A stretch of DNA of 64,000 nucleotides from Rhodospirillaceae bacterium (GTDB lineage: Bacteria; Pseudomonadota; Alphaproteobacteria; Rhodospirillales; UBA2165). The stretch is from the NCBI GenBank assembly GCA_002723345.1, contig PBNV01000031.1, forward strand, positions 115,953 through 179,952. The letters run 5' to 3'. The position numbers and the translations under genes were made by a program. Below are positions 8,161-60,311 of this stretch, piece by piece; the first letter of the stretch is position 1, and every line of letters starts with the position of its first letter. The notes beneath the pieces were generated by a model. That model made no database searches. It was not told where the DNA came from and saw only the letters and a program-made list of their open reading frames with translations.

Positions 8161-8484
8161 TTAAAAGGGTAGCTTGAAACCCGGAGGCAGTTGCAGGCCG
8201 CCGGTGAGCTCGGACATTTTTTCCTGAACTTTGTTCTCTACCTTGGAGCGGGCGTCATTGGCGGCAGCAACTATCAGGTCCTCCAGCATCTCGGCACTAT
8301 CCGGCATCAAAAGACTTGGGTCGATTTTTAAGCGTCGGGCCTCATTCTTGCCGGTGAGGGTGTATTCCACCATCCCACCACCTGAAGAGCCGGTCACCTC
8401 TATATCGGAGAGCTTATCCTGCATTTCAGCCATTTTGCTTTGCATTTCTTGGGCCTGTTTCATCATCTGCCCCAGATTTTTCAT
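8161..8484 (-). CDS. ybaB: YbaB/EbfC-family nucleoid-associated protein
   Basis: 107 aa beginning [25 protein letters not shown] and ending LPPGFKLPF. It sits in the conserved dnaX-ybaB-recR order. Confidence 0.9.
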
Positions 8485-10262
8485 GTGTTTTCCTCTGCTC
8501 CTGTGCCTGGCATCACCTCCGAGATTTCTCCCATTGGCCCGTCACCATCGAGATTACGGATGGTTTCGATTTCTGCGTCCGGGAATGTTGCCATGACTGA
8601 TTTCACGAAGGGATGGGCTGCTACCTTTGCGCGGAGAGCCTCCTTGCGGTTGCCTTCTTGTTGGGCCAAGGTTTCGTCTCCACCGTCCTTGGCGAGTACC
8701 ACGGACCAGCGTGTGTCGGTGTGTTCGTTCAAGAATTTATAGAGCCGCTGGGGAATGTCCGACGCCGCACCTGTTACGAGTCGAAGCTCAATCTTCCCCG
8801 CCTCAAAATTCACCAGGTGCACATTGTTCACCAGATCGGCCCGAAGAATACGCTCATTTTCCCGGTCCAGGAGAGTAATAATTTGTTCAAAATTTTTAAT
8901 TTCGGGTTGTATCTGCTGCAGTTGTGACACGGCTTCAGCGCCGGATTGGGGTGCTGGTTGCGAAATAGCCGCCGCCATGGCCGCTTGACTTTTGGGTCTG
9001 ACCTCAGTACCTGGCGTCGCAGTCGGTCCACCAGAAGGTCCCTGTCCCGCGCCGCCGCTTTGCAGAGATTTCACGGCTTCCGCCGGCGATGGCAAGTCGC
9101 TCAAGTAGGCGAGCCGGACCAGTATCATTTCGGCAGCCTGAATCGGAGAAGGCGCAATTTGCACCTCTTGCAGGCCTTTCAGGAGCATTTGCCATGCGCG
9201 ACTGAGGCTGGCCATGGATAGCCTGCTGGCCAAGTCGTTGCCGCGCACGCGCTCGCTCTCGGGGTTGGCCAAATCATTAGCCACCGCGGGTGTCACCTTG
9301 ACCCGGGTGAGCCAATGCACCACTTCGAGCAGATCCCGCAGCACAATGACGGGATCAGCGCCGTTGGCATAATCCTCCCCAATCATGTCAAGCGCGCCTG
9401 AGGCATCCCCCTTCATAGTAAGGTCTAAGAGGTCGAAACTTCGCTCCCTGTCCGCAAGACCTAAGATCCCTCGGACATCCGTATCGGATATTTCAGCCCC
9501 CGCACCGGTAGCAATGGCTTGATCCAGGAGACTTTGGCCATCTCGGACGGAGCCGTCTGCGGCTCGGGCGATGAGGGCAATCGCTTCGCGCGTAAGTTTG
9601 GCGCCCTCCTTGTCCGCGATCATTCTGAAATGCGCGGAGAGGGTGGCCACCTCGACCCGCCGAAGATCAAACCGCTGGCAGCGCGACAGCACCGTTACCG
9701 GGATCTTACGGATTTCCGTCGTTGCAAAGATAAACTTCACATGTTCGGGCGGTTCCTCGAGGGTCCTCAACAGGGCGTTGAAAGCGTTCCGGGACAGCAT
9801 GTGCACTTCGTCAATAATGTAGACTTTGTAGCGTGCGGATACCGGTTTATAGCGTACTCCTTCTATCAGCTCGCGCACATCATCAACGCCTGTTCGGCTC
9901 GCAGCGTCCATCTCCAATACATCGACCAGACGGTCTTCTGCAATGGATGTGCAAAATTGACACTTGCCGCAGGGGTCGATTGTGGCGTCTCCATCGCCGC
10001 CGGGCCCGACACAGTTGAGGGCTTTAGCAATAATTCGGGCTGTTGTTGTTTTTCCAACACCCCGGACGCCAGTGAGAATAAACGCATGGGCAATGCGCCC
10101 CGTGTCAAATGCGTTGGTGAGGGTCCTAACCATGGCGTCCTGACCGATCAAATTGGAAAAATCTGTCGGCCGGTATTTTCGCGCGAGAACCTGATAGCCG
10201 GCGGCGGCAGCGGGGCTCTTCTCCGTCAAAGCTGAGTTCTGATCTAACGTATCTTCTGACAT
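8481..10262 (-). CDS. dnaX: DNA polymerase III subunit gamma/tau
   Basis: Motifs [12 protein letters not shown], the Walker [14 protein letters not shown], the zinc module CGKCQFC, and [10 protein letters not shown] place the start at the ATG at 10262 (MSEDTLDQ...) rather than the track start at 10307, because the extension would run into the SRP RNA gene. Confidence 0.9.
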
Positions 10263-10293
10263 GCTGTCTCGGGCAGTTGATCTCGTGGCGAGT

Positions 10294-10390
10294 GGAAGAT
10301 CGGACACGCGACCCGGACAAAACTCGTTACGGCTGCTTCCTTCCGGACCTGACCGGGTTGGCGAGCGGTCCGTCCGCGGCCGATCTCCCG
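10294..10390 (-). ncRNA. ffs: Signal recognition particle RNA (small bacterial 4.5S type)
   Basis: The minus strand reads CGGGAGAUCGG...CCGGUCAGGUCCGGAAGGAAGCAGCCGUAACG...CCGAUCUUCC. It contains the universally conserved domain IV string GGUCAGGUCCGGAAGGAAGCAGCC, identical to E. coli 4.5S. Its termini GGGAGAUCGG and CCGAUCUUCC pair over 10 bp. The position upstream of dnaX is the conserved one. Confidence 0.85.
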
Positions 10391-31287: not shown

Positions 31288-32337
31288 ATGACAAATTTTG
31301 CTAATGAGCCAGTTATTGAGGACGCTTGGTATATAGCTGGATGGTCTCACGAGTTGAGTGATGGCCCGGTAGCACGTCGTATAATGGACGAAGATGTCGT
31401 CTTATTTCGCACTGTGAATGGTAAGGCCGGAGCATTGGAGGACCGTTGTTGTCATCGAGGCGTGCGTTTATCCCTGGGTGAGTGCACCGATGCGGGAATC
31501 CGGTGCGGTTACCATGGTATGGCTTTCGGGCCCAGTGGTGAATGCATTGATAACCCTGGTGAGAAATTGAATCGGTCATTTTGTGTTCGTTCTTTTCCAT
31601 TGGTGGAACGCCAAAATTTCTTGTGGATTTGGATGGGAGAACCAGCAAATGCAGATGAAGATCTGATTATAGATTTTCCATATCACGATCAATGGAGTTT
31701 CCATTTTGGGCATTATCCAATAGAGGCCAACTTTATGTTTCTTATCGATAATCTGATGGACTTGACCCATTTGGGATACGTACACGGCAGTACGATCGGT
31801 GGTGATATTGAAAATCAAAATGTGGCCGAGGTGGAAACTTGGAAGACAGAAAAGGGTGCAAGGTTTGTTCGATGGATGGAGGACGTACCTCCGCCACCTA
31901 CCTTTGTCGCATCAGGAGGCTTTCAGGGTAATATCGATCGCCGAGCCGAGTTTGAATACATTGCCCCCGCGTCTGTTATGCAATCTACTGGCGTATTTGA
32001 CGCAGGAAAAGGTAGCAAAGAGAGTATTGATCTGGACGGAGGTTTAAAGTTTCGATTATTTCATCATGCGACCCCGGCGTCTGAGAGTGAGTTTCATTAT
32101 TTTTTTTCGGCAGGGGTTGAAGGAGCCACACTCGAGTCGCCCGAGAGCCAGAAATTTTTTCAAGATGTTTTAGATGCGTTCCTTGAGGATAAGCTCTTTA
32201 TTGAGGCACAACAAGATGCCGTAGCCCGAAACCCCTCAGAGCGATTATTGCTTAGGGAACACGACAGGGCTGTTGCCTACGCGCGACAAGCCGTTGCCCA
32301 ACTGCGCCGCCAAAATTTTGCCACGGCTGCAGAATAG
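31288..32337 (+). CDS. Rieske [2Fe-2S] non-heme-iron oxygenase alpha subunit (VanA/PaO-like)
   Basis: Rieske motif CCHRGVRLS...CGYHGMAF and a mononuclear-iron region DNLMDLTHLGYVHGST. The size of 349 aa fits the vanillate-demethylase-like class. Confidence 0.8.
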   Translation: MTNFANEPVIEDAWYIAGWSHELSDGPVARRIMDEDVVLFRTVNGKAGALEDRCCHRGVRLSLGECTDAGIRCGYHGMAFGPSGECIDNPGEKLNRSFCVRSFPLVERQNFLWIWMGEPANADEDLIIDFPYHDQWSFHFGHYPIEANFMFLIDNLMDLTHLGYVHGSTIGGDIENQNVAEVETWKTEKGARFVRWMEDVPPPPTFVASGGFQGNIDRRAEFEYIAPASVMQSTGVFDAGKGSKESIDLDGGLKFRLFHHATPASESEFHYFFSAGVEGATLESPESQKFFQDVLDAFLEDKLFIEAQQDAVARNPSERLLLREHDRAVAYARQAVAQLRRQNFATAAE

Positions 32338-32552
32338 TTATCCTAAGTTCACATTCGCGAGGAAATTAGGCGCTTTGATACTGGACCGGATGCAAAACAT
32401 CGGTTGATAGTCACAAATCGTAGTGAGTGCTTTAGAAGGTATTAATCAGGTTAACGCTGCGCTGAGTAGGTGCGGACCTGGCCCTTTTTCTTTTTTTCCG
32501 ACAGGTTTTCTGGTAGACCCTCTGTCGAGAGTTATCGCACTACTTAGGCTCT

Positions 32553-32771
32553 ATGCAGATGATCAAAAAGGCGATCCCACTGTTAACCTTACTGCTGGTG
32601 ATGTTTTGGCCGAGCGCTTCACAGGCTTATTTAGATCCTGCGACAGGCAGTATGCTCATACAGTTGTTAGTCGGTGGAGCAGTAGCTATTGGTGTTACGT
32701 TGAAAATGTATTGGGAGAAAGTCAGGTTTTTCTGGCAAAAAAAAGTTTTGAAAAAAGATCGACCTGAATAG
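32553..32771 (+). CDS. Small membrane protein with a YLDPATGS motif
   Basis: 72 aa: signal-like N-terminus, AYLDPATGSMLIQLLVGGAVAIGV (a hydrophobic helix), and a basic tail. It is preferred over the overlapping 114-aa ORF at 32423..32767, which has no membrane or signal logic. Confidence 0.4.
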   Translation: MQMIKKAIPLLTLLLVMFWPSASQAYLDPATGSMLIQLLVGGAVAIGVTLKMYWEKVRFFWQKKVLKKDRPE

Positions 32772-32924
32772 CAAGTTCGGTCGAATAAAAGTGCCAATGC
32801 GCACGTCTGGTGTTTTTAGCGCAAGGCCTTTACTCCCGAGAAAACACTTAAATTTTCAAATGATATTTCTTTTCAGTAATTTTCCAGAATTATTTTACTC
32901 GGAATGGCAGATACATTTTAAAAC

Positions 32925-34442
32925 ATGCATAATTTAAGCGTCAAAAAAGGCTTTGCTCTAATATTACCTTGCTTGGTTTTCATTACGATGCAGGTTGTTT
33001 TTCAGTCTAGTCAGCTGCATTCAATACTAAATCTGGAGAGTTTAGCCCTCTTTTCTGTATTAGTCTTTGTTGGTGTTTGGGCAGGAGTCTTACTTGAATT
33101 TGAAAATCGCATGGTATCTTCAATTGTTATTGGGGCGCTATTTTCCATATTCCTAAATTTTATCGTATCCATAGAATACTCTGAGATTCGCATGCGCCAC
33201 AGTGTCCCCTTTTACTTTCTTATAGGTTTTTCCATTCATTGGTTTATGGGTGGGAAATTTCTAGTCATAATTTCTTCTGGTTTAATTGCAGTCTTATTAT
33301 CAACTTTATTGCTTCCATCAGAAAAGCCTTGGAAGGAGAACACGTTTAAGTTGGCGAAAACCGTACACCCCTCAAATTACCGCTCACCAATTCTTCACAT
33401 AATTTTAGATGGGCATCTTGGGTTGGCAGCATTTCCTCGTCAAATTGAGGGAGTTGAGCGATTAAACAAAAGAATTGGCGGTATCTATAAACAATATGGC
33501 TTTAAGGTTTATTCCCATGCTTTTAGCCGCCACAATTATACTCAAAACTCTATTCCAGAAATCCTAAATTTGAAGGAAATCAAAATTGATAAGAGTTATA
33601 TTAAAACGGACCCAAAACGCGGATTCGTACTAAAAAAGTCGGCCGTATTCGAGCAATACCGTAAGCACGGCTATGAATTGAACGTATTTCAGACCGATGT
33701 CATGGACTTTTGTTCGTTGGGATATTTTTCTTATTGCCTGACCGCGCCTTATAGAAACCTTGCATGGCTATCAAAGTCGGGCTTCGATTTTTCCACGAAA
33801 TTTTTCGTACTGGCATCAGCATTTCTAAACCAATCAAATTTGTTCCGTTGGTTTGAGAGGTATGTGCTGGCTAGGTGGAATATCGCTGCCCATCCGAAGA
33901 GTTTTCCGCCCGTCAACATGGTAGAGATGTTTAAACGAATTTCGAGGAGCACAGATTTGATTAAACCTGGGACCGTATCACTCGCCCATGTTCTGCTACC
34001 TCACGAGCCCTATGCTTTGGATGAATTATGCAACCTTCGTCCAATAAGTGAATGGTACCCTCAGAATTTAATTAAGGACCAGGAGTCTTACTTCGCTCAG
34101 ATGAATTGCACATACACGCTACTAGAGGAGTTGTTTGAATCGATCCGTAACAATCAAAGCGCAAAAGACGCTATCATAATTGTCCACGGCGATCATGGTT
34201 CCCGTATCGCACACAATGAAAAGTATGCAAAACTGTACACTTACTCCACGTTGTTTGCCGTTCGACACCCAAATTTACCCGCAAATGTTTTTAGCGATGA
34301 AGAGAGTATCACGACATTATTTTCCAAACATGTGTTGGAGTACCTTGGCCTAAACGACGGTAAAAAATTTAGAAACAACTCAATAATGAAAATTAAAGAG
34401 GCTGGCGGGGAGCTGGTCGAGGATGCAGCCCTAAAGTTTTAA
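32925..34442 (+). CDS. Membrane-anchored sulfatase/alkaline-phosphatase-superfamily transferase-hydrolase (LtaS/EptA-like architecture)
   Basis: 505 aa with about 5 N-terminal TM helices and then a soluble domain. That domain has ILHIILDGHLG (metal-ligand Asp region), a candidate nucleophile region HNYTQNSIPE, HVLLPHEPY, and IIVHGDHGSRI (the HGDHG metal motif). Confidence 0.6.
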   Translation: MHNLSVKKGFALILPCLVFITMQVVFQSSQLHSILNLESLALFSVLVFVGVWAGVLLEFENRMVSSIVIGALFSIFLNFIVSIEYSEIRMRHSVPFYFLIGFSIHWFMGGKFLVIISSGLIAVLLSTLLLPSEKPWKENTFKLAKTVHPSNYRSPILHIILDGHLGLAAFPRQIEGVERLNKRIGGIYKQYGFKVYSHAFSRHNYTQNSIPEILNLKEIKIDKSYIKTDPKRGFVLKKSAVFEQYRKHGYELNVFQTDVMDFCSLGYFSYCLTAPYRNLAWLSKSGFDFSTKFFVLASAFLNQSNLFRWFERYVLARWNIAAHPKSFPPVNMVEMFKRISRSTDLIKPGTVSLAHVLLPHEPYALDELCNLRPISEWYPQNLIKDQESYFAQMNCTYTLLEELFESIRNNQSAKDAIIIVHGDHGSRIAHNEKYAKLYTYSTLFAVRHPNLPANVFSDEESITTLFSKHVLEYLGLNDGKKFRNNSIMKIKEAGGELVEDAALKF

Positions 34443-34479
34443 AGGAAGGACCCGTTTTTGATGCTGGCTCAAACCCGAT

Positions 34480-36030
34480 TTAAAGTACACGCCTTCGGAT
34501 TTGCGAAGAAACCATGTCAATTATGAAGATGGTAACAAAAATCATAATAATTATTGCAGATACTCGAGGGTAGTTAAACATTCTAAACGATGATTGAAGT
34601 TCGTATCCTATGCCACCAGCTCCGACTATACCAAGCATGGTGGCCATTCTCACGTTTCGGTCAAGGATATACAAATTGTTGCCAACAAAAGATGGAAGCA
34701 CTTGAGGGATTATAGAAAAAGCGAGAACCTGGAGGCGCGAGGCATTCATCGAGGTAAGTGCTTCTGACGGGCCTGGATCTATATGTTCGATGGCCTCGGC
34801 ATAAAATTTAGCAAGAAATCCCATCGTGTGAAGACCGAGAGCTAGAACTCCAGGGATTGCGCCAAAACCCACAGCAATGACCAAGATCATTGCCATTACA
34901 AATTCGGGAACGGCTCTAAAAAACACGGTTATAACCCGACACATCACATAAATACTATAATTTGGAGAAATATTGGAAGCTGATAAGAACCCGAGAGGAA
35001 TTGATAGGGTAATGGCCATTAATGTCCCTAAAAAAGCCATCTCAACTGTTTCTAGCATCAACCCAAGTAATTGATTCATATTGGAAAAATCTGGTGGCAT
35101 CATTCTTTGAATGACATCGGAAAAATAGGTAAAAGTATTATGAAACAGCTCTAATGGGTCGATCTCTAAATCTATAATTGCTAAAATTGTAAATAGAATT
35201 AGACCTGAAATGCTCAAATATGTGGGCCAATTCCATTGCGGTAGGATGTAAGACTCCAAAAGCTTGCGGTTGCCTTCCTCTATGTCGATATATTTGTCTA
35301 ATTTTCCACCATAACCACTTATTTCTGCACTTTCATGAGCGACTAGGACTAATTCTTTGATCGTATTTTTAGTTTTCTCCGGCAATACTGATGAGAAGAC
35401 CAATGGAGCGCCTGGAATAGGCTTAGACTCATGAAGGATACGTATCCTTTGGGCGTACTCTGGGTTACGAGCAATATTCTCTTGCAGATTCACTGAGCTT
35501 ACGGCTGCAACATCAGCACGACCCTCCAATAATATTCGGATAGCCTCATCATGATTATTTGCTTCTATAATTTCAGAAAAATGCAACCTGTTATCTAGAT
35601 TTACCCCGACATCTTTTAGTTCTCTTTTAGGGACGAGGTATCCACTCATAGATTGCGGATTACCTATAACTATTCTCGTCCCCTTAATGTTTTTTAGATC
35701 CTCAACATTTGACTCTTTGAGAGAAATAAAAAGGCTATTGTATGTTGGGGTTGATTGTCCCTTCAGCAACCCGACTGCAAAAGGCTGTATAATCCCTTTT
35801 TCGTTAGCCTCAAGATACGCGTAAGGGCCTAGCCATCCCATTTGCGCTTCCCCGTTTGTCAGTTTAGAGAGCGCCTCTTCATAACTTTCGCAGCGCTGGA
35901 TATGGAAGGAAAAAGATGTTTTCTCTGTCAGAAATTCAAAGAGATTATCAAAATCGAGGCCGGAGGCTTTTCGGCTCGCGGGTGCGATGGCCACTTGAAT
36001 TGTTGTTTCAGGTTCCACCATTTCCATCAA
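34480..36030 (-). CDS. Fusion protein: PhnD-like phosphonate-binding domain plus PhnE-like ABC permease
   Basis: 516 aa. Residues about 1-260 are PhnD-like (GWLGPYAYLEA, SMSGYLVP, ADVAAVSS). The rest is PhnE-like (ETVEMAFLGT, RAVPEFVMAMILV, LDRNVRMATMLGIVGAGGIG). The N-terminus has no signal peptide. The start is TTG 36030 or ATG 36027. Confidence 0.75.
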   Translation of the reverse strand: MMEMVEPETTIQVAIAPASRKASGLDFDNLFEFLTEKTSFSFHIQRCESYEEALSKLTNGEAQMGWLGPYAYLEANEKGIIQPFAVGLLKGQSTPTYNSLFISLKESNVEDLKNIKGTRIVIGNPQSMSGYLVPKRELKDVGVNLDNRLHFSEIIEANNHDEAIRILLEGRADVAAVSSVNLQENIARNPEYAQRIRILHESKPIPGAPLVFSSVLPEKTKNTIKELVLVAHESAEISGYGGKLDKYIDIEEGNRKLLESYILPQWNWPTYLSISGLILFTILAIIDLEIDPLELFHNTFTYFSDVIQRMMPPDFSNMNQLLGLMLETVEMAFLGTLMAITLSIPLGFLSASNISPNYSIYVMCRVITVFFRAVPEFVMAMILVIAVGFGAIPGVLALGLHTMGFLAKFYAEAIEHIDPGPSEALTSMNASRLQVLAFSIIPQVLPSFVGNNLYILDRNVRMATMLGIVGAGGIGYELQSSFRMFNYPRVSAIIIMIFVTIFIIDMVSSQIRRRVL

Positions 36031-36050
36031 TTTTCATCCGGGTAACAAAA

Positions 36051-36848
36051 TTAGGATACAAAAGGAACGTCAATACTTGAGATATATTCGTTATTATGGG
36101 CCCCAAAAAACACGTCCTGTCTCTCACTGCCATAGATATTATGGAGGTATTTTAGGTCTAAAGACGCGCTAGGTGCATCAAAAACTATCTTTCCGTTAGT
36201 CAAACCTATAATTCGATCAGCAAATTTCAGCGCCAAGTCTACTTGATGAAGATTACACAAAACGGTAATCCCCTGTGCCGAGCTAATTCGTTTGAGCATT
36301 GATAGCACCTGAAATGCAATTAAGGGATCAAGACTGGCTACCGGTTCATCTGCCAAAACAATTAGAGGCGAGCGAGCTATAGCCCTGGCAATGCCAACTC
36401 TTTGCTGTTGGCCACCAGAGAGTTGATCCGCTCGAACGTGAGCTTTTGAGAGCAGGCCCACTTGATCAATACATTCGAGTGCTCGCAATTTCTGAGATTT
36501 ATCGAATAAATAAAAAAGCGAACCAACTGGGTGGCACTTATCCAACATCCCTGACAGCACATTATTTATCGTCGACAGATTCTTGACCAAGTTAAAATCT
36601 TGAAAAATCATACTAATGTGTTGCCGAGCTACAAACGGATCATCAAAATTTATGTGGTTTTTATTTAAAATAATTGAGCCGCTGGTCGGTTTATTTAATC
36701 CATTTATACTTCTTAATAATGTTGTTTTTCCGGACCCACTAGGTCACAAAATAACAACAAATTCTCCCTTTTTTACCTCAAAATTCACCTCTTTTAATGC
36801 TTTGGTCCCGTCATTAAATGTATGCTGAAGGTTTTGTACGTTTAGCAT
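36051..36848 (-). pseudogene. phnC: Phosphonate-type ABC ATPase PhnC, interrupted by an in-frame TGA at the first Walker-A Gly codon
   Basis: From the ATG at 36848 the frame reads [53 protein letters not shown]...ISMIFQDFNL...[14 protein letters not shown]...[10 protein letters not shown]. The stop codon at 36744..36746 occupies the G of GPSGSGKT. The track reports only the downstream 186 aa. Confidence 0.8.
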
Positions 36849-36906
36849 ATTTTCATGTTTATTAATCAGCGGGTAAAAATAAAAATAAAAAACTTGGCAT
36901 CATGAT

Positions 36907-37755
36907 TTATTTTCTAGCGTCGAGCAAACCCTCCACCTCTCGCAGTAGGTCATAGTCGGAGTCGGTAACAGGGATATAACGTGCCATTTCTCCGCCGTAG
37001 CCCCCAATTTTACCGTGTTTATGAGCCTCCAAAACGGCCGCCCTTATTTTTTTTCTGACTGGCTCCGGGAGCTTAGTCGAGTAGGCTAGTGGGGGAGGTG
37101 GAACGGGGGATGACACATGAATTATGCGGAAATCATCTTTTTTAAACGTTTGATCCTTGAGGCGCGCATCAAAATTTCTAGAACTGACCCCACACACATC
37201 AGCGTGTTTATTTCGGATCGACATCATGCACGCGTCGTGGCTTCCAGCGTAAAAAACGCGTTTAAAGTCCTGGGCTGTTGAAAGACCAAATTTTTGCAGT
37301 TCTACCCGGGGGATTAAATCCCCGCTGGTTGAACCTATACTATTCAGCGCCAGTAATTTGCCTTTTAAGTCGGGCAGTGTTTTGTAGGCGCTGTCCGTAC
37401 GAACAACAAAATAAGTGTTATAAGTCGCATCGGTATCACCTTTACGAACGCCTGCCGCAAAAGCCTCTGCATTTGCTATTTTTGCTGCCATTATGTAGGT
37501 CTTACCACCAAACCAGGCTATTTGCGCCCTGTCTGCCCGCATCGACTCAACGGCCGCATTATAGTCCGTAACTCGAATTGGCGTTATTTCATATCCCGTT
37601 AGCTTGTTTACAATCTCTATTAAATTTACGTAGTCTTTTTCATCGCCCTTCTCGCTGGCTGGAACGAACACCATGTTGATTTTTACTGGTTTTGCTATCA
37701 GGGGAACAGTCCATGCGATCAGCAAAATAACAAAAAGAGGGAGCAATTTATTCAT
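36907..37755 (-). CDS. phnD: PhnD-family periplasmic phosphonate/phosphite-binding protein
   Basis: 282 aa with a signal peptide MNKLLPLFVILLIAWTVPLIA, then MVFVPA, IAWFGGKTYIMA, and STSGDLIPR, typical of the PhnD family. Confidence 0.8.
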   Translation of the reverse strand: MNKLLPLFVILLIAWTVPLIAKPVKINMVFVPASEKGDEKDYVNLIEIVNKLTGYEITPIRVTDYNAAVESMRADRAQIAWFGGKTYIMAAKIANAEAFAAGVRKGDTDATYNTYFVVRTDSAYKTLPDLKGKLLALNSIGSTSGDLIPRVELQKFGLSTAQDFKRVFYAGSHDACMMSIRNKHADVCGVSSRNFDARLKDQTFKKDDFRIIHVSSPVPPPPLAYSTKLPEPVRKKIRAAVLEAHKHGKIGGYGGEMARYIPVTDSDYDLLREVEGLLDARK

Positions 37756-37781
37756 TAATTCACCTACTGGTTACCTTTTTA

Positions 37782-38903
37782 TCAGCTAGCAAACTCGACG
37801 AGTGCTTTTTTATAGTCTTCAACCGTATCTATCTCTCTCCAGCCACGTTCAATGATAACGCTGTGAACGGATACTCCGAGATCCACCATTTCTTGGATTA
37901 AGTCAGTGAGGTAGGCTTTTTGGAATGTTTTGGCCCGTTGGAAGGGCTTGTCCCAATAAAGTGCTTTTGACCTCTGAAAATGACGCTTAAAAATTTCCGC
38001 CCCTCGTGGCGTCAATTTAATCATACCAATAAATTCACCATGAACATCATCCTTGTTGGTCATAATTTTACCGATTTTTATGACCTCATTATTGGCGTCC
38101 AATACCACATTTTCCGCCTCATCAATTGGATGTTCTTTCCTGCCGACATACATTCCGCGCCAATCGATATCTACTACAATCGAAATGTCGTGCTTGGACT
38201 CAAGTAATCTACGAACAATAAAGCTCTCGAATAGTATGTCAGAGTAAGATATAACAACATTATTGTTTATTTCCTTTTCTGCATAAAATAGTGAATTTAA
38301 GATATTGTTATTCTCATATTCATCATTATCAAAATATTTGATATCTGGATAATCTATACACTCTTTTTTGTACCCTCTAATCAGCGAAATATCAGATATG
38401 CCTGTTTCTTGGTATGCCTCAAGCTGGCGTTGCAGCAGGGTCTTGTCTCCAAATTCTAAAAGACATTTTGGACGCACATCGGTATATGACCCCATCCTGC
38501 TACCGAGACCGGCTGCAATAATGATCGCTTTTGTATTCTTGGCCATAAGCAACTCCCGCATTTCTCTGATCTGTAACTCGCTGGCGCGTTGGTCTTGGAT
38601 CTCCCTCAATAGGTGCACTGTTTCGGGACTTTTCTGGATCATCTCTGATACATCTGCCGCGATATCATTTCTAGACTGCCCTGCTAAATCGAAAGCTAAT
38701 TTTTTATCCGCATTCAACAGATTGGCGATCTCCATCACGGTTGCCGCTTTTGGGGCGTCACGTTTCTGTTTCTCGATGTCGTTAAGGTACGAAGGGGAAA
38801 TGCCTAATTGACGCGCAAATTCCCTGAGCCCTAGACCCGCATCTAATCTAAGATCTCGAATGTACTGTCCAAAAGTATCGCTTGGGTCACCCATGAGAGC
38901 CAC
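37782..38903 (-). CDS. XRE-type HTH domain fused to a LicC/PntC-like nucleotidyl(cytidylyl)transferase
   Basis: 373 aa. The N-terminus FGQYIRDLRLDAGLGLREFARQLGISPSYLNDIEKQKR is a Cro/C1 HTH. From about residue 122 it reads KAIIIAAGLGSRMG...RPKCLL...ISYSDILF...WREIDTVEDYKKA, a GT-A NTP-transferase fold of the phosphocholine or 2-AEP cytidylyltransferase type. Confidence 0.75.
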   Translation of the reverse strand: MALMGDPSDTFGQYIRDLRLDAGLGLREFARQLGISPSYLNDIEKQKRDAPKAATVMEIANLLNADKKLAFDLAGQSRNDIAADVSEMIQKSPETVHLLREIQDQRASELQIREMRELLMAKNTKAIIIAAGLGSRMGSYTDVRPKCLLEFGDKTLLQRQLEAYQETGISDISLIRGYKKECIDYPDIKYFDNDEYENNNILNSLFYAEKEINNNVVISYSDILFESFIVRRLLESKHDISIVVDIDWRGMYVGRKEHPIDEAENVVLDANNEVIKIGKIMTNKDDVHGEFIGMIKLTPRGAEIFKRHFQRSKALYWDKPFQRAKTFQKAYLTDLIQEMVDLGVSVHSVIIERGWREIDTVEDYKKALVEFAS

Positions 38904-38955
38904 ATTTGTTCAACTGTTCGCAAACAGGTAAACAATCTAGGTCCGATGGTCAATA

Positions 38956-40110
38956 TTATTTTTTTACTATGTCATAAATCAACTCGGAGCCCCTTTTGGC
39001 ACTTTGGCCGATATTAAATACAGTTTTGTCCCGCAAAGCTCGAATTTGTGTGACAAATTTCTCTGAGTCTTCCATAATTTCTGTCACGACATCTGTCACG
39101 TTGTCTAACTTCTCTTTCCCAAGAATTATGCCAATCTTATCACGCGCACTAATTTCAATGGGAATATTTTCTAACTCCGTGTAACGTGGATTATTTATTT
39201 TTTTGGGAACGTCAATGAATATGACGGGCCGCTCTAAGCCGAAGGCAAACTCTAAACTGACGCCCGACCAGTCACTTATTAATACATCGGCTTTGATCAA
39301 ACTCTCAAAAATAGCGTTATCCATATCCATTTCAAAATTTGGATGACTATTAAAGTTCGCAGCTAAGAGTTTCACATTTTTGGCAGATTTGATCCTGCTT
39401 TGCGGGTGAAGCCGCAACGTCACATAATGTCCCGCATCCAGTAGCGACCCAACTAATTCTTTTGCACCATTTTCAATCAAGCCCTCTGACCCCCATGATG
39501 GGGCAACTAATACGTTATAATTCGAGGTTGCTGGTTTTGAAATAAGGGGCTGCGAAGATACCATATCCAGAATGGTGTCTAATGGTGCGTATCCATGTTC
39601 ATACAAATTTTTTTCTGGGAGATTATTCAATTTCTCCCATTCGCGAATTTCCGATACATGGTGGGATCCGGAGCACAAAATTGTGTCAAAGTGATCAAAA
39701 GCCCCTGGCTTGTAAACCATGTGAGAACTCACAAGAGAGTGTTGCAAATAGATATAGTGGACCGGGTAACGCGATCGTTTAATATGAAAGGAGTGAAGGT
39801 CAGGCATTGTCATCACTAAGACCTTGGCCTTTAAGGTTTGAAAGGCAAATATCATTGCGCTTCCCCAACCTACATATACTGATTTTACATTCTCTGGTGG
39901 TTCCGAGAGCAACGGGTCATCTTGATCAGAGGTTAAATAACAAATTCTTAAATTATGATCCTCTGTTAAATGGGACATTACTGGCAAAAGAAAACCGTGG
40001 TATGCCCCCCCCTCCGAGTAAAATACCAAGTTTTTATCTTCCAAAGGTAGCGACCGCAGTTCAATGCACCCACGCCAAGATGCAATAAACGATTGGAAAT
40101 ATTTAAGCAC
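38956..40110 (-). CDS. TagF-like CDP-alcohol (glycero/ribitol)phosphotransferase family protein
   Basis: YNVLVAPSWGSEG matches the family APTWR-type motif. ADVLISDWSGVSLEFAFGLERPVIFIDVP matches the LITDYSS...F motif. The start is uncertain: the track start at 40203 overlaps the tRNA, so I suggest the GTG at 40110 (MLKYFQSF...). Confidence 0.7.
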   Translation of the reverse strand: MLKYFQSFIASWRGCIELRSLPLEDKNLVFYSEGGAYHGFLLPVMSHLTEDHNLRICYLTSDQDDPLLSEPPENVKSVYVGWGSAMIFAFQTLKAKVLVMTMPDLHSFHIKRSRYPVHYIYLQHSLVSSHMVYKPGAFDHFDTILCSGSHHVSEIREWEKLNNLPEKNLYEHGYAPLDTILDMVSSQPLISKPATSNYNVLVAPSWGSEGLIENGAKELVGSLLDAGHYVTLRLHPQSRIKSAKNVKLLAANFNSHPNFEMDMDNAIFESLIKADVLISDWSGVSLEFAFGLERPVIFIDVPKKINNPRYTELENIPIEISARDKIGIILGKEKLDNVTDVVTEIMEDSEKFVTQIRALRDKTVFNIGQSAKRGSELIYDIVKK

Positions 40111-40164
40111 TTTCAAACCAGGCAAAACAATACAGTTTTGTTTAGAGACTTCGGCCCATAAGAA

Positions 40165-40240
40165 TGGTGCCGCCTGGGTGACTTGAACACCCGACCCTCG
40201 CATTACGAATGCGATGCTCTACCAACTGAGCTAAGGCGGC
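40165..40240 (-). tRNA. tRNA-Thr (anticodon CGU), with encoded CCA
   Basis: The minus strand reads GCCGCCTTAGCTCAGTTGGTAGAGCATCGCATTCGTAATGCGAGGGTCGGGTGTTCAAGTCACCCAGGCGGCACCA. It folds into a perfect cloverleaf: 7-bp acceptor, GCTC/GAGC D stem, TCGCA/TGCGA anticodon stem with loop TTCGTAA, and GGGTG/CACCC T stem with a TTCAAGT loop. Confidence 0.95.
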
Positions 40241-41769: not shown

Positions 41770-43218
41770 TTACTTTTCTTTTTGATCCCGGGCGACGCGC
41801 TGATCCGAGGGATTAGGCGGCTCTATAATATCGAGGTGGTCAGGCCCGTCCTCGTTATCCAAAGTTTGCATGATTTCGGACCCCGCGTGGTTCAGCGTGT
41901 TTGTCGCGATTTCACTATCAATCCGCGTTACGCGCGGCGGTATCTTCCACTCCAACGTGTCAAATTTTTCGCACCGGGTGCAAATCGGTTCCCATTCTGC
42001 AGCAGCGTTTCCACAATCATTACAAAGCCAGACTGGGTCTGGATCGGCAACAGACGCCCGTTTTAACCATTCCCGTGACGCGTCCACATCATTGTGCTCG
42101 GCCTCTTCAAGTTCTGCCATATAGCGGCATACGCGTGCCGAGGGGTGAATTTGCACCGTTGCCAGAAGATGCTCCCGGGCCTCCTGCCACATGCCGGCGG
42201 CGAGTGCGGCCCTGGCAATGGCGAGGTGGCTCTCCTCGTGATCATTATTGTAAGCTGCCAGCCGTTCAATCGTGCGCATTTTCTCTTGCGGACCCGCGCC
42301 CGAGGCCAGTTCTCCCATCACATCTGCCAAGTGAGGGTGCGGATTGGAAACCCAAATCTCTTCGATGATTGCAGCTGCCTTCCGGCGTTTACCGGCGCTT
42401 TGCAGCAGACGGGCCGTCCGGATTGCGGCTGGTACGAAATCTGGTGCTAAATTATTGGCCCTCTGAGCATGGCGTAGGGCGTCGCCCAGCTTTCCATCGT
42501 TTTCCTCTTCTAGGCTGCGCTGAAACAGCATCAGCGCTCGCCTTCGCCGTCCTGTCGTGCCGTCAACAGTCTTATTCTTGATGGACTTTTTGACCGTCTC
42601 TTCTGCTCTCTCCCAGTCCTGTTTTTTGATTTGTAGATCCAAAAGTGTGGCGGTTGCGGTTTCTGTCTTTGGTTTGAGATTGCTGGCTTGTTCCGCCAAC
42701 TCCAGCGCGCCGTCCTGATCGCCATCTTCCATGGCCTGTTTGAGTTTACCGCTCAAGCCCAAATATTTTGTCTCGGGTTGCTCCGCCATGGCATCAAAGA
42801 ATTTCCCGGCCGCTTTTTCGTCCCCCGATAATTGAGCGGCTTGGGCAGAGAGCAGCATGGTGAGGGGAGGCTCGGCAAGCAGCGCCTCTGCTTTTCGGGA
42901 CAGGCGGCGGGCTTCGACTGCATCGCCTGCAGCGACGGCCACCATGCCCTGGGTAAGGGCTTTGTATCCTCGTTGCCGGCGCCAGTCCTGGCGAGCCCGG
43001 TCGATGCGCCGGGGCGCGCGCCGCAAAAATGACCAGATCCGAAGCGCGGACGCCAAAAGAAAAGAGAGGACGAAGAGCGCCGCGAAAAGGATGCCGACGG
43101 AGGCCTCAATTTTATATCCCAGCCACTGCATGGACATTTGACCGGGATTGTCCGCCAGTAGGGCGGCGCCAAGACTGAATGCTGCCAGCAGGAGAAGAAA
43201 CCAAAATGCTCGAAACAT
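41770..43218 (-). CDS. hemY: HemY-like protein (HemY_N membrane domain, TPR region, C-terminal zinc ribbon)
   Basis: The N-terminus MFRAFWFLLLLAAFSLGAALLADNPGQMSMQWLGYKIEASV is the HemY_N pattern. The C-terminus is CNDCGNAAAEWEPICTRC. It occupies the conserved position after hemC-hemD-mic60. Confidence 0.8.
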   Translation of the reverse strand: MFRAFWFLLLLAAFSLGAALLADNPGQMSMQWLGYKIEASVGILFAALFVLSFLLASALRIWSFLRRAPRRIDRARQDWRRQRGYKALTQGMVAVAAGDAVEARRLSRKAEALLAEPPLTMLLSAQAAQLSGDEKAAGKFFDAMAEQPETKYLGLSGKLKQAMEDGDQDGALELAEQASNLKPKTETATATLLDLQIKKQDWERAEETVKKSIKNKTVDGTTGRRRRALMLFQRSLEEENDGKLGDALRHAQRANNLAPDFVPAAIRTARLLQSAGKRRKAAAIIEEIWVSNPHPHLADVMGELASGAGPQEKMRTIERLAAYNNDHEESHLAIARAALAAGMWQEAREHLLATVQIHPSARVCRYMAELEEAEHNDVDASREWLKRASVADPDPVWLCNDCGNAAAEWEPICTRCEKFDTLEWKIPPRVTRIDSEIATNTLNHAGSEIMQTLDNEDGPDHLDIIEPPNPSDQRVARDQKEK

Positions 43219-43225
43219 AAGATGG

Positions 43226-45106
43226 TTACTCGTTTGCGGCCAGTAAGGCGACAGCTCTGATTTGTAATCGGTCCAGGAAGTTGTTTACGGAAATCAAAGC
43301 TTCAGCATTTTTAAGCCATGGCGCCGCCTTTGTGGCAGGAGCGGCTGTGAGTGTTTTGAGTTCTGCCACAGCATCGGCTAAGTCAGACCGTCCTAGGGAG
43401 CGCTCTGCCCGAGCAACGATGGCTTCCACGTCAGTACCGTTGAAGTCGTCGGTTCGGCGCCATTTCAGAGTCTGGGCGAGCCGGGCAAGCGTGCGGTCCA
43501 TTAAGCCCTTCCCCTTGGGTAAATTTTCCGCCTGAACAATGGCGCCGGCCAACACTGTGAATTCTTGACGCAATTGACTTAGGCTAGGCACCCCTTTTTT
43601 AGCGGCTTCTGAAAGGCCGGTAATGGCCTCTGAGAGGTCGGTGTCATCAAGTTTGAGATTCTTTAAAATTTCAAGCTCTCCCGAGAATGATCGGCCGGCG
43701 TGGGCAGCGGTTCGGAGTTGAACCACGGCAAGAAGAAAAGCTCGTACTTTTGCACTGTTATCTGCCGTCCCTGCCGATGGGACTTTCGTCTCCATAGTGG
43801 CCATTTTTTGCGTCAGCAGGCCCAGTCGTTTTCGAGTTTCCGAAGCCATCGACTCTTTGGTCGCCTCCAAAAGAGTGAGACGTTCAGAGAGTTTCTTTAA
43901 CGTCGCTTCTGCTGAGTCGGAGCCCTTGCTGGTATCCACTGCATTAATCATCGATTTTACCGAGTTGAGGGATCCTTCGAGAGATCTGATACGAGTAAGG
44001 GTAGCGTCTAGTTGGGATTGGAGCAGGTTCCGTTCTTTTTGCAATTCGTTGAGTTTGGGGAGGCTCTCCTTTGATTTGGACTCAAGTTTCAGAAGCCGGC
44101 TCGTTAGAGCATTTAACTGATCGGTCGTTGAGTCACCAAAGATTGGCAATGGGACAAAATCTCGGAGCTTGGGCACCCACAGGTCTGACGTGGCCGCACC
44201 AGCACCGATGGTAAAGGCGGAAAAGAGAAGCGTTATAAAGACGGTTCGAAATGTGTGACTTTTTTGACTTTGCTGGGATTTTACCTCAGGCGCTGGCGGG
44301 CGTTCTCCTGAGCCGTGTACTGGCGATGTTTTCTTTGGCGATACGTTATTTTGCACGTATTGTTCCCTCTCCAATGCCAGCTCAGACGCCGTTTTACCCT
44401 TGGTATCTTCGAGCGCCTGTAGCAAAGCATCTTGTGTGGGTGCTTTCGCTACTAGGCATTCTCGCCAGCTCAGATCAGAGGCTTTTTCTGCCACGGCAGG
44501 GCTCAAGCAAATTAAAGTAAGATGTTTTGCTACCCGGACCAATCTGGATTTCCTGAGTAGTTTAACAAATGTTTCGGCCGTTCGCGGAGAATAAAGCAGA
44601 ACCGTCTTGATCTTCCCACTCTTGATGCCCGCAATGGTCTCGGGACTGAGTGATTTGGTAGGTTCAGATTTATAAAGAACGTGTAGCCGGCATTCGAAAC
44701 CTGCTGTTTCCAAGGTCTCTTTCAGGAGCCCTGCTCGCACCGAACCAGCAGCGTGATAAAGTGCACCATTTTTCGGGTCGAGCATTTCTGTGGCCATCGC
44801 GGCAAGCGCGCCCACGTCACCCTCAGCACTATGAACCTGGGCGAACCCCAAATCACGCGCGGTGTTAGCGGTTGCATCTCCAACTGCATAAAGTGGGATA
44901 GACATGTTTGGTTTGCGGTTAAACAGGGCCCGCACGCCATTGGAGCTTGTTGCTAAATAAGCCTGAACACCACTCGTATCGATATCGGGCCCGTCTCGAA
45001 GATTGACCACCAAAAGCGGCTCATGGAGCCCGTCATAGCCCAGTTCCGTCAAGCGGGCCATTAGGGCCTCTCCATCTGTGCCGGGTCTAGTGACAAGGAC
45101 ACGCAT
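43226..45106 (-). CDS. hemD: Uroporphyrinogen-III synthase (HemD) fused in one ORF to an alphaproteobacterial Mic60/mitofilin-like protein
   Basis: 626 aa from the ATG at 45106, preceded by AGGAGG with a 9-nt spacer. Residues about 1-245 are HemD-like (MRVLVTRPGTDGEAL...LLYSPRTAETF). Next come a Pro/Ser/Gln linker, one TM segment (TVFITLLFSAFTIGAGA), and coiled-coil sequence. The C-terminus is mitofilin-type (AERSLGRSDLADAVAELKTL...APWLKNAEALISVNNFLDRLQ). Confidence 0.75.
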   Translation of the reverse strand: MRVLVTRPGTDGEALMARLTELGYDGLHEPLLVVNLRDGPDIDTSGVQAYLATSSNGVRALFNRKPNMSIPLYAVGDATANTARDLGFAQVHSAEGDVGALAAMATEMLDPKNGALYHAAGSVRAGLLKETLETAGFECRLHVLYKSEPTKSLSPETIAGIKSGKIKTVLLYSPRTAETFVKLLRKSRLVRVAKHLTLICLSPAVAEKASDLSWRECLVAKAPTQDALLQALEDTKGKTASELALEREQYVQNNVSPKKTSPVHGSGERPPAPEVKSQQSQKSHTFRTVFITLLFSAFTIGAGAATSDLWVPKLRDFVPLPIFGDSTTDQLNALTSRLLKLESKSKESLPKLNELQKERNLLQSQLDATLTRIRSLEGSLNSVKSMINAVDTSKGSDSAEATLKKLSERLTLLEATKESMASETRKRLGLLTQKMATMETKVPSAGTADNSAKVRAFLLAVVQLRTAAHAGRSFSGELEILKNLKLDDTDLSEAITGLSEAAKKGVPSLSQLRQEFTVLAGAIVQAENLPKGKGLMDRTLARLAQTLKWRRTDDFNGTDVEAIVARAERSLGRSDLADAVAELKTLTAAPATKAAPWLKNAEALISVNNFLDRLQIRAVALLAANE

Positions 45107-57032: not shown

Positions 57033-58367
57033 ATGTCTCACCAAGACCTTCTCAAGCGTATTACAGATAATACAGCTATCATCGGTGTGATCGGCATGGG
57101 GTATGTTGGTTTGCCTCTTGCTATTACTTTTGCAGACAAAGGGTTTTCCGTCGTCGGCCTTGATGTTGATCCAGATAAGGTCAAGAGTTTGAATGCTGGA
57201 ATTTCTTACATCAGACATGTCCCTGGCGAGAGCATTTCTCGTCATGTGGAAGGCGACCGTATTAATGCGACCATCGATTTTACTGCGCTGGCCGATGTTG
57301 ATGCTATTCTTATCTGTGTACCGACCCCTCTTAACGGGAACAGGGAGCCAGATTTAAGTTATGTTGAGTCGACGGCTCAGATGATTGTTCCTCATTTGAG
57401 AGAGGGCCACTTAATCGTGCTCGAGTCGACTACATATCCAGGCTGCACGGATAGTTTATTAAAGCCTATTCTTGAACAAGGTGGGATGAAGTCAGGCGAG
57501 GACTTTTACCTTGCTTATTCGCCAGAGAGGGAAGATCCAGGAAATCCTGAATTTGCAACGTCGCGCATTCCAAAAGTGGTCGGAGGCGATGGTGCTCAGG
57601 CTCTTGAAACAGCAACTGCACTTTACGATCAAATTGTTGTTGGGACTGTTCCCGTGTCATCCATGGACGTTGCCGAGGCTGTAAAACTCACAGAAAATAT
57701 TTTCCGTTCAGTGAACATTGCGCTCGTAAACGAACTCAAGGCGATCTATGAAAAAATAGGCATTAATATCTGGGAAGTTATTGAGGCGGCAAAAACAAAG
57801 CCATTTGGGTACATGCCATTTTATCCCGGACCAGGACTGGGCGGGCACTGTATCCCCATTGACCCCTTCTATCTCTCGTGGCGTGCTAAGCAGGCCGGTG
57901 AGTCAACACGGTTCATCGAGCTCGCTGGTGAAATAAATACTGCAATGCCAGAAAAGGTAATAAATACACTTGAGCAGGCCCTTCAGGACCAATTCAATCA
58001 ACCATTAAAAGGTGCAAGTATTTTACTAATAGGACTGGCGTATAAGAAAAATGTCGATGACACACGCGAAAGTCCTGCGTTTTCATTAATCGAGATTATG
58101 GAAACTCGCGGTGCGAATGTCCAATATTATGATCCCCATATCCCTGAGATTCCTATTACACGTGAATACGCGCATTTGGCGGGGCGTCGCTCACTTGATT
58201 TGGACGGTAAAAATAATGCTGACTTCGATGCATTGCTCATTTGTACAGATCACGATGCCATAGATTTTGTAAAAATTACGGAGGGTCAAAAGTTGATCAT
58301 AGATACCCGCGATGCAATTTCCCGATCGGAGGTTACATTGAATGAGAACCAAGTAGTTAGAGCGTAG
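57033..58367 (+). CDS. Nucleotide-sugar dehydrogenase (UDP-GlcNAc/ManNAc 6-dehydrogenase type)
   Basis: GVIGMGYVGLPLA Rossmann fold, the catalytic region GPGLGGHCIPIDP, and LGLAYKKNVDDTRESPA. The start is moved to the ATG at 57033. Confidence 0.85.
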   Translation: MSHQDLLKRITDNTAIIGVIGMGYVGLPLAITFADKGFSVVGLDVDPDKVKSLNAGISYIRHVPGESISRHVEGDRINATIDFTALADVDAILICVPTPLNGNREPDLSYVESTAQMIVPHLREGHLIVLESTTYPGCTDSLLKPILEQGGMKSGEDFYLAYSPEREDPGNPEFATSRIPKVVGGDGAQALETATALYDQIVVGTVPVSSMDVAEAVKLTENIFRSVNIALVNELKAIYEKIGINIWEVIEAAKTKPFGYMPFYPGPGLGGHCIPIDPFYLSWRAKQAGESTRFIELAGEINTAMPEKVINTLEQALQDQFNQPLKGASILLIGLAYKKNVDDTRESPAFSLIEIMETRGANVQYYDPHIPEIPITREYAHLAGRRSLDLDGKNNADFDALLICTDHDAIDFVKITEGQKLIIDTRDAISRSEVTLNENQVVRA

Positions 58368-58877
58368 CCCTCATTCAGGGTGTATTAGCCGAGAATTTCA
58401 TTATTACATCCGGATGCAGTATCTCATTCCCTTGACTTTCATATTTTTGTTTAGGCACATGCTTTATTGATGATAGTTGGATAACAAATACTGTTGTAAT
58501 TGTTCGTCTATCAATAGGTTTACGAAAAGAATAAGTATGCAGTTCTGTCCCAACCAAAAAAACAGGGATGCGGAGTTCAAAAAAAATTGAAGCAATTTAT
58601 TTTTGCCAAATTTCGGTGTACTGGGCCAAAATATTGAAACAACCCGGAAAACTGCATACAAAGGATGACTTGGTTGAAGACGATTGTAGTTTGTTACTCT
58701 AAAAACGTCTGTTCTCAAATGTTTGCAGTATTGCAAGCTAACCTAATACAGTATTTTTCTTTTGCCTTGAGTTCTCCGCAGCGTTGAATAATTTATGTTC
58801 AATCAACTAACGTCATCCTCGCTCACACAATGTTGCGCATTTTTTTCATTATCCCTTAAATGCTTGGCTCTCGTTGA

Positions 58878-60149
58878 GTGAGGTACTCAAAGTCACGTCA
58901 AAATCACCTACTAGGGCTAGCGTTGTCGTTAGTCCTTCCGTTAGGTGTATTTGCACCCAAGGGGCTTGCTCCACTTTTTATTATAACGTTTTTTATAATA
59001 GCAACCTATCTCCCTCGCTTCGGAGTTATTACTGCTTGGGTGCGATTAGGTAGGACGAGCGAGTTATCTTTTGCGATCGCGACTATATTTTTGATCGGTG
59101 TTGCCTCTTCAGCCTGGTCTGTCACCCCACAGAAATCTTTTTGGGCCGCTATTACAGTCGGTGCAATGCTTTTTATGGGCGTTGCCGTTTCTAGAATTGG
59201 ATCCTCTATATCGGCTGAAGATCGTAAAATTATTGAAAAATATATTTTTTTTGGAGCACTTTGCGGCTTTGTCCTGCTGGGTACTGAATATTTAACTAAT
59301 TCATTTCTAACCAGACACATACTACTATTTTCAGGCAAAGATGTGCTGCCCCAAACAGATCTCAGCCACCGACTAAATGCCGCGAGTTCAGTTGGAGCAA
59401 TACTTATTTGGCCATGGTTTCTATTTTTATTTCGGAATTTCAGTTTTGCTCTTGCAGTAGTTATTGCTGGGGCATCTGTCTCCATTTTTGCATTTAGTCA
59501 CGCGAGTGCCCCGGCGGTTTCTGTTCTTATAGGGTGCGTGGTCTTCTTGGTGAGTTACTTATTTTATCGCCAAATATCTGTGGTCTTTGGATTGCTCGTT
59601 GTTACCGCGATTTTTTTTATGCCCTTGGGCCCAAAATTAATAGCCTCGCCTACCGAGTTGGGCAGTAGTTCACATTTTTTACCTCATTCTAGTGTGCACC
59701 GTTTGTTTATTTGGCAGACTACAATCAAACATATCGAAGATAGACCAATTTTGGGCCATGGATTTGATACAGCAAGGTCGTTTTACGATAAAAAAAATCT
59801 TGAGGTAATTGAATTTTTTCCAGGTCAGCCCCGTAAGTCATTCAAAAACTTTTTTGAGCCAATTCCCCTTCATCCGCACAATGGTGTACTTCAAATTTGG
59901 CTCGAAATGGGTGTGCTTGGCGCGCTGGCACTCGTGGTTATTTTGTTGGCGATAATAAGAGTAATACATATAAATTGCCAGAATGCCGCCGAGGTTGCTA
60001 TGGCCTATTCAACACTATCATCTGCCTTGGTTCTTGTTTCCGTGAGTTTTGGAATTTGGCAAAATTGGTGGCTGGCTGCTCTAATGTTGATCGGACTTCT
60101 ATCAGTTTTCTCAAATCTGACAAGCCGGAAAAACTCTTTGAAGAGTTAA
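58878..60149 (+). CDS. O-antigen ligase / Wzy_C-family membrane protein
   Basis: 423 aa, polytopic, with a periplasmic-loop motif GHGFDTARSF and PLHPHNGVLQIWLEMGVLG typical of the family. AT-rich. Confidence 0.7.
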   Translation: MRYSKSRQNHLLGLALSLVLPLGVFAPKGLAPLFIITFFIIATYLPRFGVITAWVRLGRTSELSFAIATIFLIGVASSAWSVTPQKSFWAAITVGAMLFMGVAVSRIGSSISAEDRKIIEKYIFFGALCGFVLLGTEYLTNSFLTRHILLFSGKDVLPQTDLSHRLNAASSVGAILIWPWFLFLFRNFSFALAVVIAGASVSIFAFSHASAPAVSVLIGCVVFLVSYLFYRQISVVFGLLVVTAIFFMPLGPKLIASPTELGSSSHFLPHSSVHRLFIWQTTIKHIEDRPILGHGFDTARSFYDKKNLEVIEFFPGQPRKSFKNFFEPIPLHPHNGVLQIWLEMGVLGALALVVILLAIIRVIHINCQNAAEVAMAYSTLSSALVLVSVSFGIWQNWWLAALMLIGLLSVFSNLTSRKNSLKS

Positions 60150-60311
60150 AAATATCGCTTTTCTATCGGCTCAGGTCCCAAAAATTCTGAGCCAGAGCGA
60201 TCCGTCAATAAGAAGTTTTTGTGCAGGCGCTGATGTACAAAAGAACTTGACGTTCATGTCGTGAACCAGTTACTGTTCGGACGATGAACGCTATGTTTAC
60301 ACACCCTCAAT

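Follow-up and report, generated by a model that had tools for sequence, protein, structure and literature searches.

The phnC gene described here raises the question of whether an in-frame TGA in its Walker A loop reflects a genuine loss of the gene in the organism, a stop that is decoded in some unusual manner, or a base peculiar to one assembly. The gene (36051..36848, minus strand, in coordinates of the window, i.e. the entire 64-kb stretch of DNA that was analysed) codes for the ATP-binding component of a phosphonate ABC transporter. Minus-strand translation gives a frame that runs from an ATG at 36848 to a TAA at 36053..36051 and comprises 265 codons and the stop, with the TGA at codon 35 (36746..36744) as its sole internal stop; the next triplet is CCT, which places it in a UGA-C context. 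The residue replaced is the glycine that opens the Walker A loop GPSGSGKT, such that the window encodes a stop directly followed by PSGSGKT and departs from the GxxGxGK[ST] pattern at its first position. The remaining motifs are in frame and intact, namely the Q-loop (MIFQ, residues 80-83), the signature (LSGGQ, 143-147), Walker B (LIVLADEP, 162-169) and the H-loop (NLHQ, 199-202). Upon restoration of the glycine the protein scores 302.3 bits against the PhnC equivalog model TIGR02315 of NCBIfam (cutoff 266.1), and the alignment extends end to end, with residues 1-240 on model positions 1-243. The 34 codons upstream of the stop are the same as in intact 265-aa proteins of other assemblies, indicating that this is an interrupted gene rather than a chance pair of open reading frames. 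On re-reading of the minus strand, the account given by the sequence-only reading, namely a TGA at the first Walker A glycine of a frame otherwise intact through the Q-loop, signature and Walker B, held in every detail, and the H-loop can be added to it.

As written, the window's phnC would encode a 34-residue peptide and, judged from its nucleotides, would be a null allele. Restarts in frame past the stop (ATA at codon 48, ATG at codon 80 and later ones) all lack Walker A. The restart at ATG codon 80 yields the 186-aa post-stop ORF (36051..36611, minus strand) of the mechanical ORF list; a standard gene caller would be expected to report this ORF for the gene, and the earlier remark that the ORF track shows the C-terminal 186 aa alone was correct. 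The 218-codon reading from ATA codon 48 (36707..36705), which spans 36051..36707 on the minus strand, is the one found in GenBank as MBN07611.1 (see below). On either side of phnC lie its partner genes, both likewise on the minus strand: phnD (36907..37755), coding for the substrate-binding protein, is 58 nt upstream, and a gene coding for a PhnD-PhnE fusion (34480..36027) begins 23 nt past the phnC stop. The fusion scores 287.9 bits against TIGR01097 (cutoff 216.7).

The neighbouring PhnD served as an anchor for locating other assemblies of the phnC locus. An identical PhnD is present in four assemblies, namely NODE_359 of ENA ERZ8733638 (67.6 kb, with a coverage label of 4.9), TARA SAMEA2622843, TARA SAMEA2622824 and Logan ERR594300, and phnC is called at 265 aa in all of them. 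Among the near-identical assemblies of this Tara Oceans population, three (L001-L003) match the window's phnC at 797 of 798 bases, the sole difference being the codon 35 base, and the fourth (L004) is identical apart from that base over its 282 bases of the gene; all four have GGA at this codon, i.e. a G in place of the window's T. Two sister strains, one from a long-read assembly (L085; 97.2% identical) and the other represented by record MDSZ01210688.1 (L097; 97.7% identical), also possess GGA, indicating that the T is derived. In total, GGA is found in six of six other assemblies and TGA in none, the six having been assembled independently from no fewer than three or four samples, with raw data possibly shared among some of them; on the plus strand position 36746 is an A in the window and a C in the other six. 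Hence the TGA base is private to the window's assembly and the ancestral state is GGA. The earlier suggestion that a single G-to-T change explains the stop is in this way shown directly, by the very comparison with orthologous loci that had been proposed alongside it.

More distant homologs present the same picture, with glycine at position 35 in each of the 120 best homologs (54-98% identity) and neither cysteine nor selenocysteine in any. The closest phnC relative among GTDB species representatives is from a Rhodospirillales MAG, at 69%. A scan of JGI metagenomes with a 45-mer in which the variable base was left open returned no match, and a 25-mer recovered one contig, that of sister strain L097, with GGA. 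The exact 186-aa post-stop product is absent from an index of 153 billion genes; the intact 265-aa PhnC is on record in NCBI, ENA and Logan.

Older pseudogenisation can be rejected, since the orthologs read GGA in all six cases and carry no further lesion besides indel noise in L085. The several or shared lesions typical of a decaying pseudogene are lacking, the TGA being the sole lesion of the window's phnC. Further disabling mutations in orthologs had been named beforehand as the sign of plain pseudogenisation; on this point nothing emerged other than the said indels in the one long-read assembly. They account for a second 186-aa truncated form of PhnC, which was considered as a recurrent inactivation and rejected because its codon 35 is GGA and its truncation stems from an unrelated 2-bp deletion. 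Its source is the Pilon-polished long-read assembly of L085 (ena:ERZ28548085 masthead_4__contig_17940_pilon), which shows 52 gap openings against the window in 20 kb. Nearly all genes of this contig are split, including hemC, hemD, those for TPR proteins, phnC, phnE and a sulfatase-family gene.

The public record of this gene is MBN07611.1, a 218-aa protein named 'MAG: phosphonate ABC transporter ATP-binding protein [Rhodospirillaceae bacterium]', which falls in the 90%-identity cluster of the intact PhnC. It corresponds residue for residue to window codons 49-265, with a methionine in front in place of Ile48, the ATA codon. An identical PhnD, MBN07612.1, is encoded on the same 233.7-kb contig. 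As MBN07611.1 corresponds to the post-stop reading, the deposited GenBank MAG contains the stop or, at minimum, some lesion ahead of codon 48, and we infer that the window comes from this Tara Oceans MAG. By using a rare ATA start, the public annotation bypasses the premature stop and thereby hides it; the product name looks normal, yet Walker A is missing. This 218-aa GenBank form is not on record in the contig index.

The comparison was extended outward from phnC by way of flanking genes. The region 20402-53218 of the window is covered by 2-4 other assemblies per base, which agree with one another save at the end of one contig, where two bases differ, and within it the window has six private single-nucleotide variants, the TGA included. 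Over 54.6 kb the window differs from NODE_359 at 12 single bases, which are evenly distributed; besides the TGA these are at 9766, 11010, 12535, 25958, 32267, 44050, 47620, 51798, 62366, 62724 and 63863, and five of these eleven sites are, like the TGA, private against 2-4 assemblies. One of the twelve is intergenic, and the 11 coding differences comprise 2 silent changes, the phnC nonsense change and 8 missense changes (K>R in DnaX, L>H in a NUDIX protein, W>L in an MFS protein, K>R in a Rieske protein, D>N in HemD-Mic60, L>R in GpsA, E>K in an epimerase and L>F in a DegT protein). Three sites can be polarised by the sister strains, and at these the sister strains have the ancestral base. Divergence of the window from L097 consists of 100 silent to 26 replacement changes, a proportion that differs strongly from that among the window's own differences (Fisher p = 7e-5). 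The transition:transversion ratio of the 12 differences is 6:6, against 109:47 in the L097 divergence, though this contrast (1:1 vs 2.2:1) is not significant (binomial p = 0.16). In light of the silent/replacement contrast with sister-strain divergence, the window's private differences look unfiltered by selection. Such a set fits with consensus errors, with low-frequency alleles taken up by the assembler, or with very fresh mutations of a sub-lineage.

These observations support the earlier conjecture that the stop stems either from a very recent inactivation or from an error of sequencing or assembly, and both of these possibilities survive the present tests. We lean, at slightly better than an even chance, towards a stop that came about in the assembly, either through an error of the consensus or through fixation of a rare minor allele, with the organism's gene intact. 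Under this proposal the population's phnC would read GGA and be intact, and the TGA would most likely not be the organism's true or prevailing sequence; an error or rare minor allele would have become fixed in a metagenome assembly that was built from several samples at low coverage and left unpolished, and the stop would be accompanied by roughly twelve further single-base differences, likewise unselected, scattered over the window. A technical or minor-allele origin, as opposed to a fixed mutation of the strain, is supported by the low coverage of the organism, as seen in the coverage label of NODE_359, and by the fact that the 186-aa product expected of a TGA-bearing contig is not on record while the intact form is. 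The stop resembles spurious stops known from draft and metagenome-assembled genomes in being a single-base lesion of an otherwise perfect conserved gene, seen in one assembly only, as well as in its setting of low coverage, unpolished assembly and random-looking companion differences. It departs from clear-cut cases of this kind in that the window's 22 differences per 100 kb would also fit a genuine and very closely related sub-lineage.

The accession style and co-occurrence with Tara assemblies suggest that the record was plausibly produced by the TOBG pipeline for Tara MAGs, in which per-sample Megahit contigs are merged by Minimus2 at >=95% identity (PMC5769542); passages of that paper on the pipeline mention no polishing step (PMC5769542). 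Further, G>T belongs to the class of changes that arise from oxidative damage in library preparation (PMC3616734). The match of the stop to this class is suggestive only. Counting against pure error is the rate of 22 mismatches per 100 kb, which is high for error and typical of strain variation. Assemblies from Illumina reads are usually accurate. Moreover, in very recently diverged real strains the ratio of replacement to silent changes is also nearly unfiltered, owing to the time-dependence of dN/dS, and the ratio observed here is therefore compatible with a real sub-lineage.

This brings us to the chief competitor of a consensus error or minor allele, namely a genuine and very recent G-to-T loss-of-function allele in a sub-lineage of marine Rhodospirillaceae, which we regard as a serious contender though with somewhat less than an even chance of being right. 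Such a sub-lineage would differ from the common clone by approximately 2 bases per 10 kb and would have its PhnC cut at residue 34. Restart products from ATG codon 80 or later would be without Walker A and would not bind ATP, leaving the PhnD/PhnC/PhnD-PhnE importer dead, possibly with a polar effect on the permease gene 23 nt downstream. The even spread of the 12 differences is what a real close relative would show, the lack of damage to the rest of phnC and its neighbours is expected of a fresh mutation, and the presence of the post-stop reading (window codons 48-265) as MBN07611.1 places the stop in the deposited GenBank MAG. Additionally, the transport cassette lies in a low-GC and probably acquired block and is plausibly dispensable. 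Natural null alleles of phn transport genes do exist: in E. coli K-12 phnE is inactivated by a frameshift at an 8-bp repeat in this permease gene, which is reversible by slippage and has been established experimentally. The two cases are alike in that one component of a PhnCDE-type importer is inactivated while relatives are intact; unlike the K-12 lesion, that of the window is a nonsense substitution which affects the ATPase gene, is seen in a single uncultured assembly and has no mechanism of reversal. The proposal of a genuine null allele is weakened by the failure of any second assembly to show it (0 of 6), by the absence of the truncated product from the gene index, by companion differences that look random rather than selected, and by the balanced transition:transversion ratio, which contrasts with that of real divergence, albeit not significantly. 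A more elaborate version, in which the TGA is a real low-frequency allele in open-ocean Rhodospirillaceae that makes an import-and-decoration cassette for a phosphonate (or phosphocholine-like) substrate an on/off polymorphism, with leakage at UGA-C perhaps yielding a little complete PhnC and so lowering uptake without abolishing it, is in our estimate very improbable.

A third set of explanations keeps the TGA as the true base and has it decoded. Readthrough, selenocysteine insertion and an alternative code are, even taken jointly, very improbable. In the first two, the UGA would be decoded through leaky termination at UGA-C by a near-cognate tRNA, by insertion of selenocysteine or by a suppressor tRNA, such that some full-length PhnC is made; we find this highly improbable. 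In its favor are the frame beyond the stop, which is fully intact, and the weak termination context, UGA followed by C being reportedly the weakest termination signal in E. coli. The leakiness of this context had been invoked by the sequence-only reading, and it stands as general knowledge on E. coli. It does not carry over well to the present stop, which is unconserved and has no downstream structure, and where tryptophan would be placed at an invariant glycine. The window has no match in 5,426 E. coli genomes, and the framing in terms of E. coli is for that reason not directly transferable. All six orthologs, with identical or near-identical downstream sequence, read GGA; since the near-identical assemblies share the sequence downstream of the codon and yet have GGA, there is no case for a recoding signal that was present beforehand. 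The 77 nt past the UGA are no more stably folded than shuffled versions: their minimum free energy is -8.9 kcal/mol, the shuffles average -9.95 (z = +0.42), and 133 of the 200 shuffles are as stable or more so, which argues against a SECIS-like hairpin. Scans for tRNAs and with Rfam found neither a tRNA-Sec nor a suppressor tRNA in the 64-kb window, the sole tRNA being a tRNA-Thr(CGT), to which Rfam adds only an SRP RNA. Near-cognate decoding at UGA inserts mainly tryptophan, a bulky residue that would not restore the invariant P-loop glycine. The likeness to bacterial selenocysteine recoding amounts to an in-frame UGA in an otherwise intact ORF, unaccompanied by a downstream hairpin; moreover, the homologs have glycine (120 of 120) rather than cysteine or selenocysteine at this position, and a P-loop glycine is no redox site.

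An alternative code with UGA as a sense codon for glycine (code 25) or tryptophan (code 4), whose probability we consider negligible, would place UGA exactly where a glycine is expected, at a universally conserved glycine position as in the code 25 of Gracilibacteria / Absconditabacteria, but is rejected because 28 of the 72 long ORFs of the window end in TGA, and is further contradicted by the indiscriminate fusion of genes that results when TGA is read as sense (long ORFs rising from 72 to 127), by the lack of in-frame TGA in all 8 other full-length genes checked, by the full-length, uninterrupted gene calls on near-identical contigs, by the alphaproteobacterial gene content with its hemC-hemD/mic60-hemY cluster, and by the GGA that the organism's own population has at this very codon. 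The window uses the standard genetic code.

The genomic setting of phnC is of some interest in itself. The gene belongs to a five-gene co-directional cassette inside a low-GC block (window 32300-40240), in which the GC content is approximately 0.42 as against 0.53 in the flanks. Upstream of phnD, on the minus strand, are genes coding for an HTH domain fused to a LicC-like cytidylyltransferase (37782-38894) and for a 415-aa Glyphos_transf-like protein, resembling CDP-glycerol glycerophosphotransferases (38956-40203); a sulfatase-family gene on the plus strand (32925-34442) converges on the cassette. The PhnD-PhnE fusion combines an N-terminal PhnD-type domain (Pfam PF12974, residues 25-234) with PhnE (residues about 270-515), and is encoded in addition to the separate, free PhnD. 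This fusion is retained in the two closest alphaproteobacterial MAG loci (70% and 57%) and in three remote loci; the remaining 74 loci that have a permease hit, SAR11 loci among them, showed no full-span match to it. The best PDB matches of the LicC-like nucleotidyltransferase are 1jyk, a CTP:phosphocholine cytidylyltransferase (E = 1.8e-16), and 6pd1 (E = 1.1e-6), which we take to be the PntC phosphonate-tailoring fusion. The HTH-cytidylyltransferase gene adjoins phnD-phnC in 27 of 80 related loci, including those of SAR11 (~62% identity). Together these associations suggest that the cassette could define a pathway for import, cytidylyl-activation and transfer of a phosphonate or phosphocholine-like head group. 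The tRNA-Thr(CGT) gene (40165-40240, minus strand) sits right on the high-coordinate boundary of the low-GC block and is overlapped by 39 nt by the 5' end of the 415-aa ORF, whose start (40203) is probably called too far upstream. An att-like direct repeat of the 3' end of the tRNA-Thr was not found at the other edge of the block, and no integrase was seen.

Certain other features of the window deserve mention. A gene on the minus strand (43226-45106), located after hemC and before a gene for a HemY_N protein (41770-43218, minus strand) that lies downstream of it, codes for a 626-aa protein combining HemD (PF02602) with a C-terminal Mitofilin/Mic60 domain (PF09731). The order hemC-hemD/mic60-HemY_N is presumably the alphaproteobacterial Mic60 gene neighborhood, here in the form of a hemD-mic60 fusion. 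A bacterial small SRP RNA (Rfam RF00169, 68 bits; 10292-10388, minus strand) is found directly upstream of dnaX (8481-10262, minus strand). A second low-GC stretch (58000-60200, ~0.41) contains a gene for a Wzy_C (O-antigen polymerase-like) protein amid sugar-nucleotide and polysaccharide genes, and is probably a variable surface-polysaccharide locus.

In conclusion, the stop is an ordinary one, be its origin technical or a recent null mutation. The deposited MAG carries a base that is contradicted by six other assemblies, and in inferences of metabolism from this MAG, such as phosphonate uptake, phnC should be taken as neither cleanly present nor cleanly absent. The case serves as a warning regarding a MAG that has some dozen private, unfiltered bases within 55 kb and whose annotation conceals a broken phnC. 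Its biological weight is small: at most, one uncultured marine alphaproteobacterial sub-lineage would have lost a phosphonate importer.
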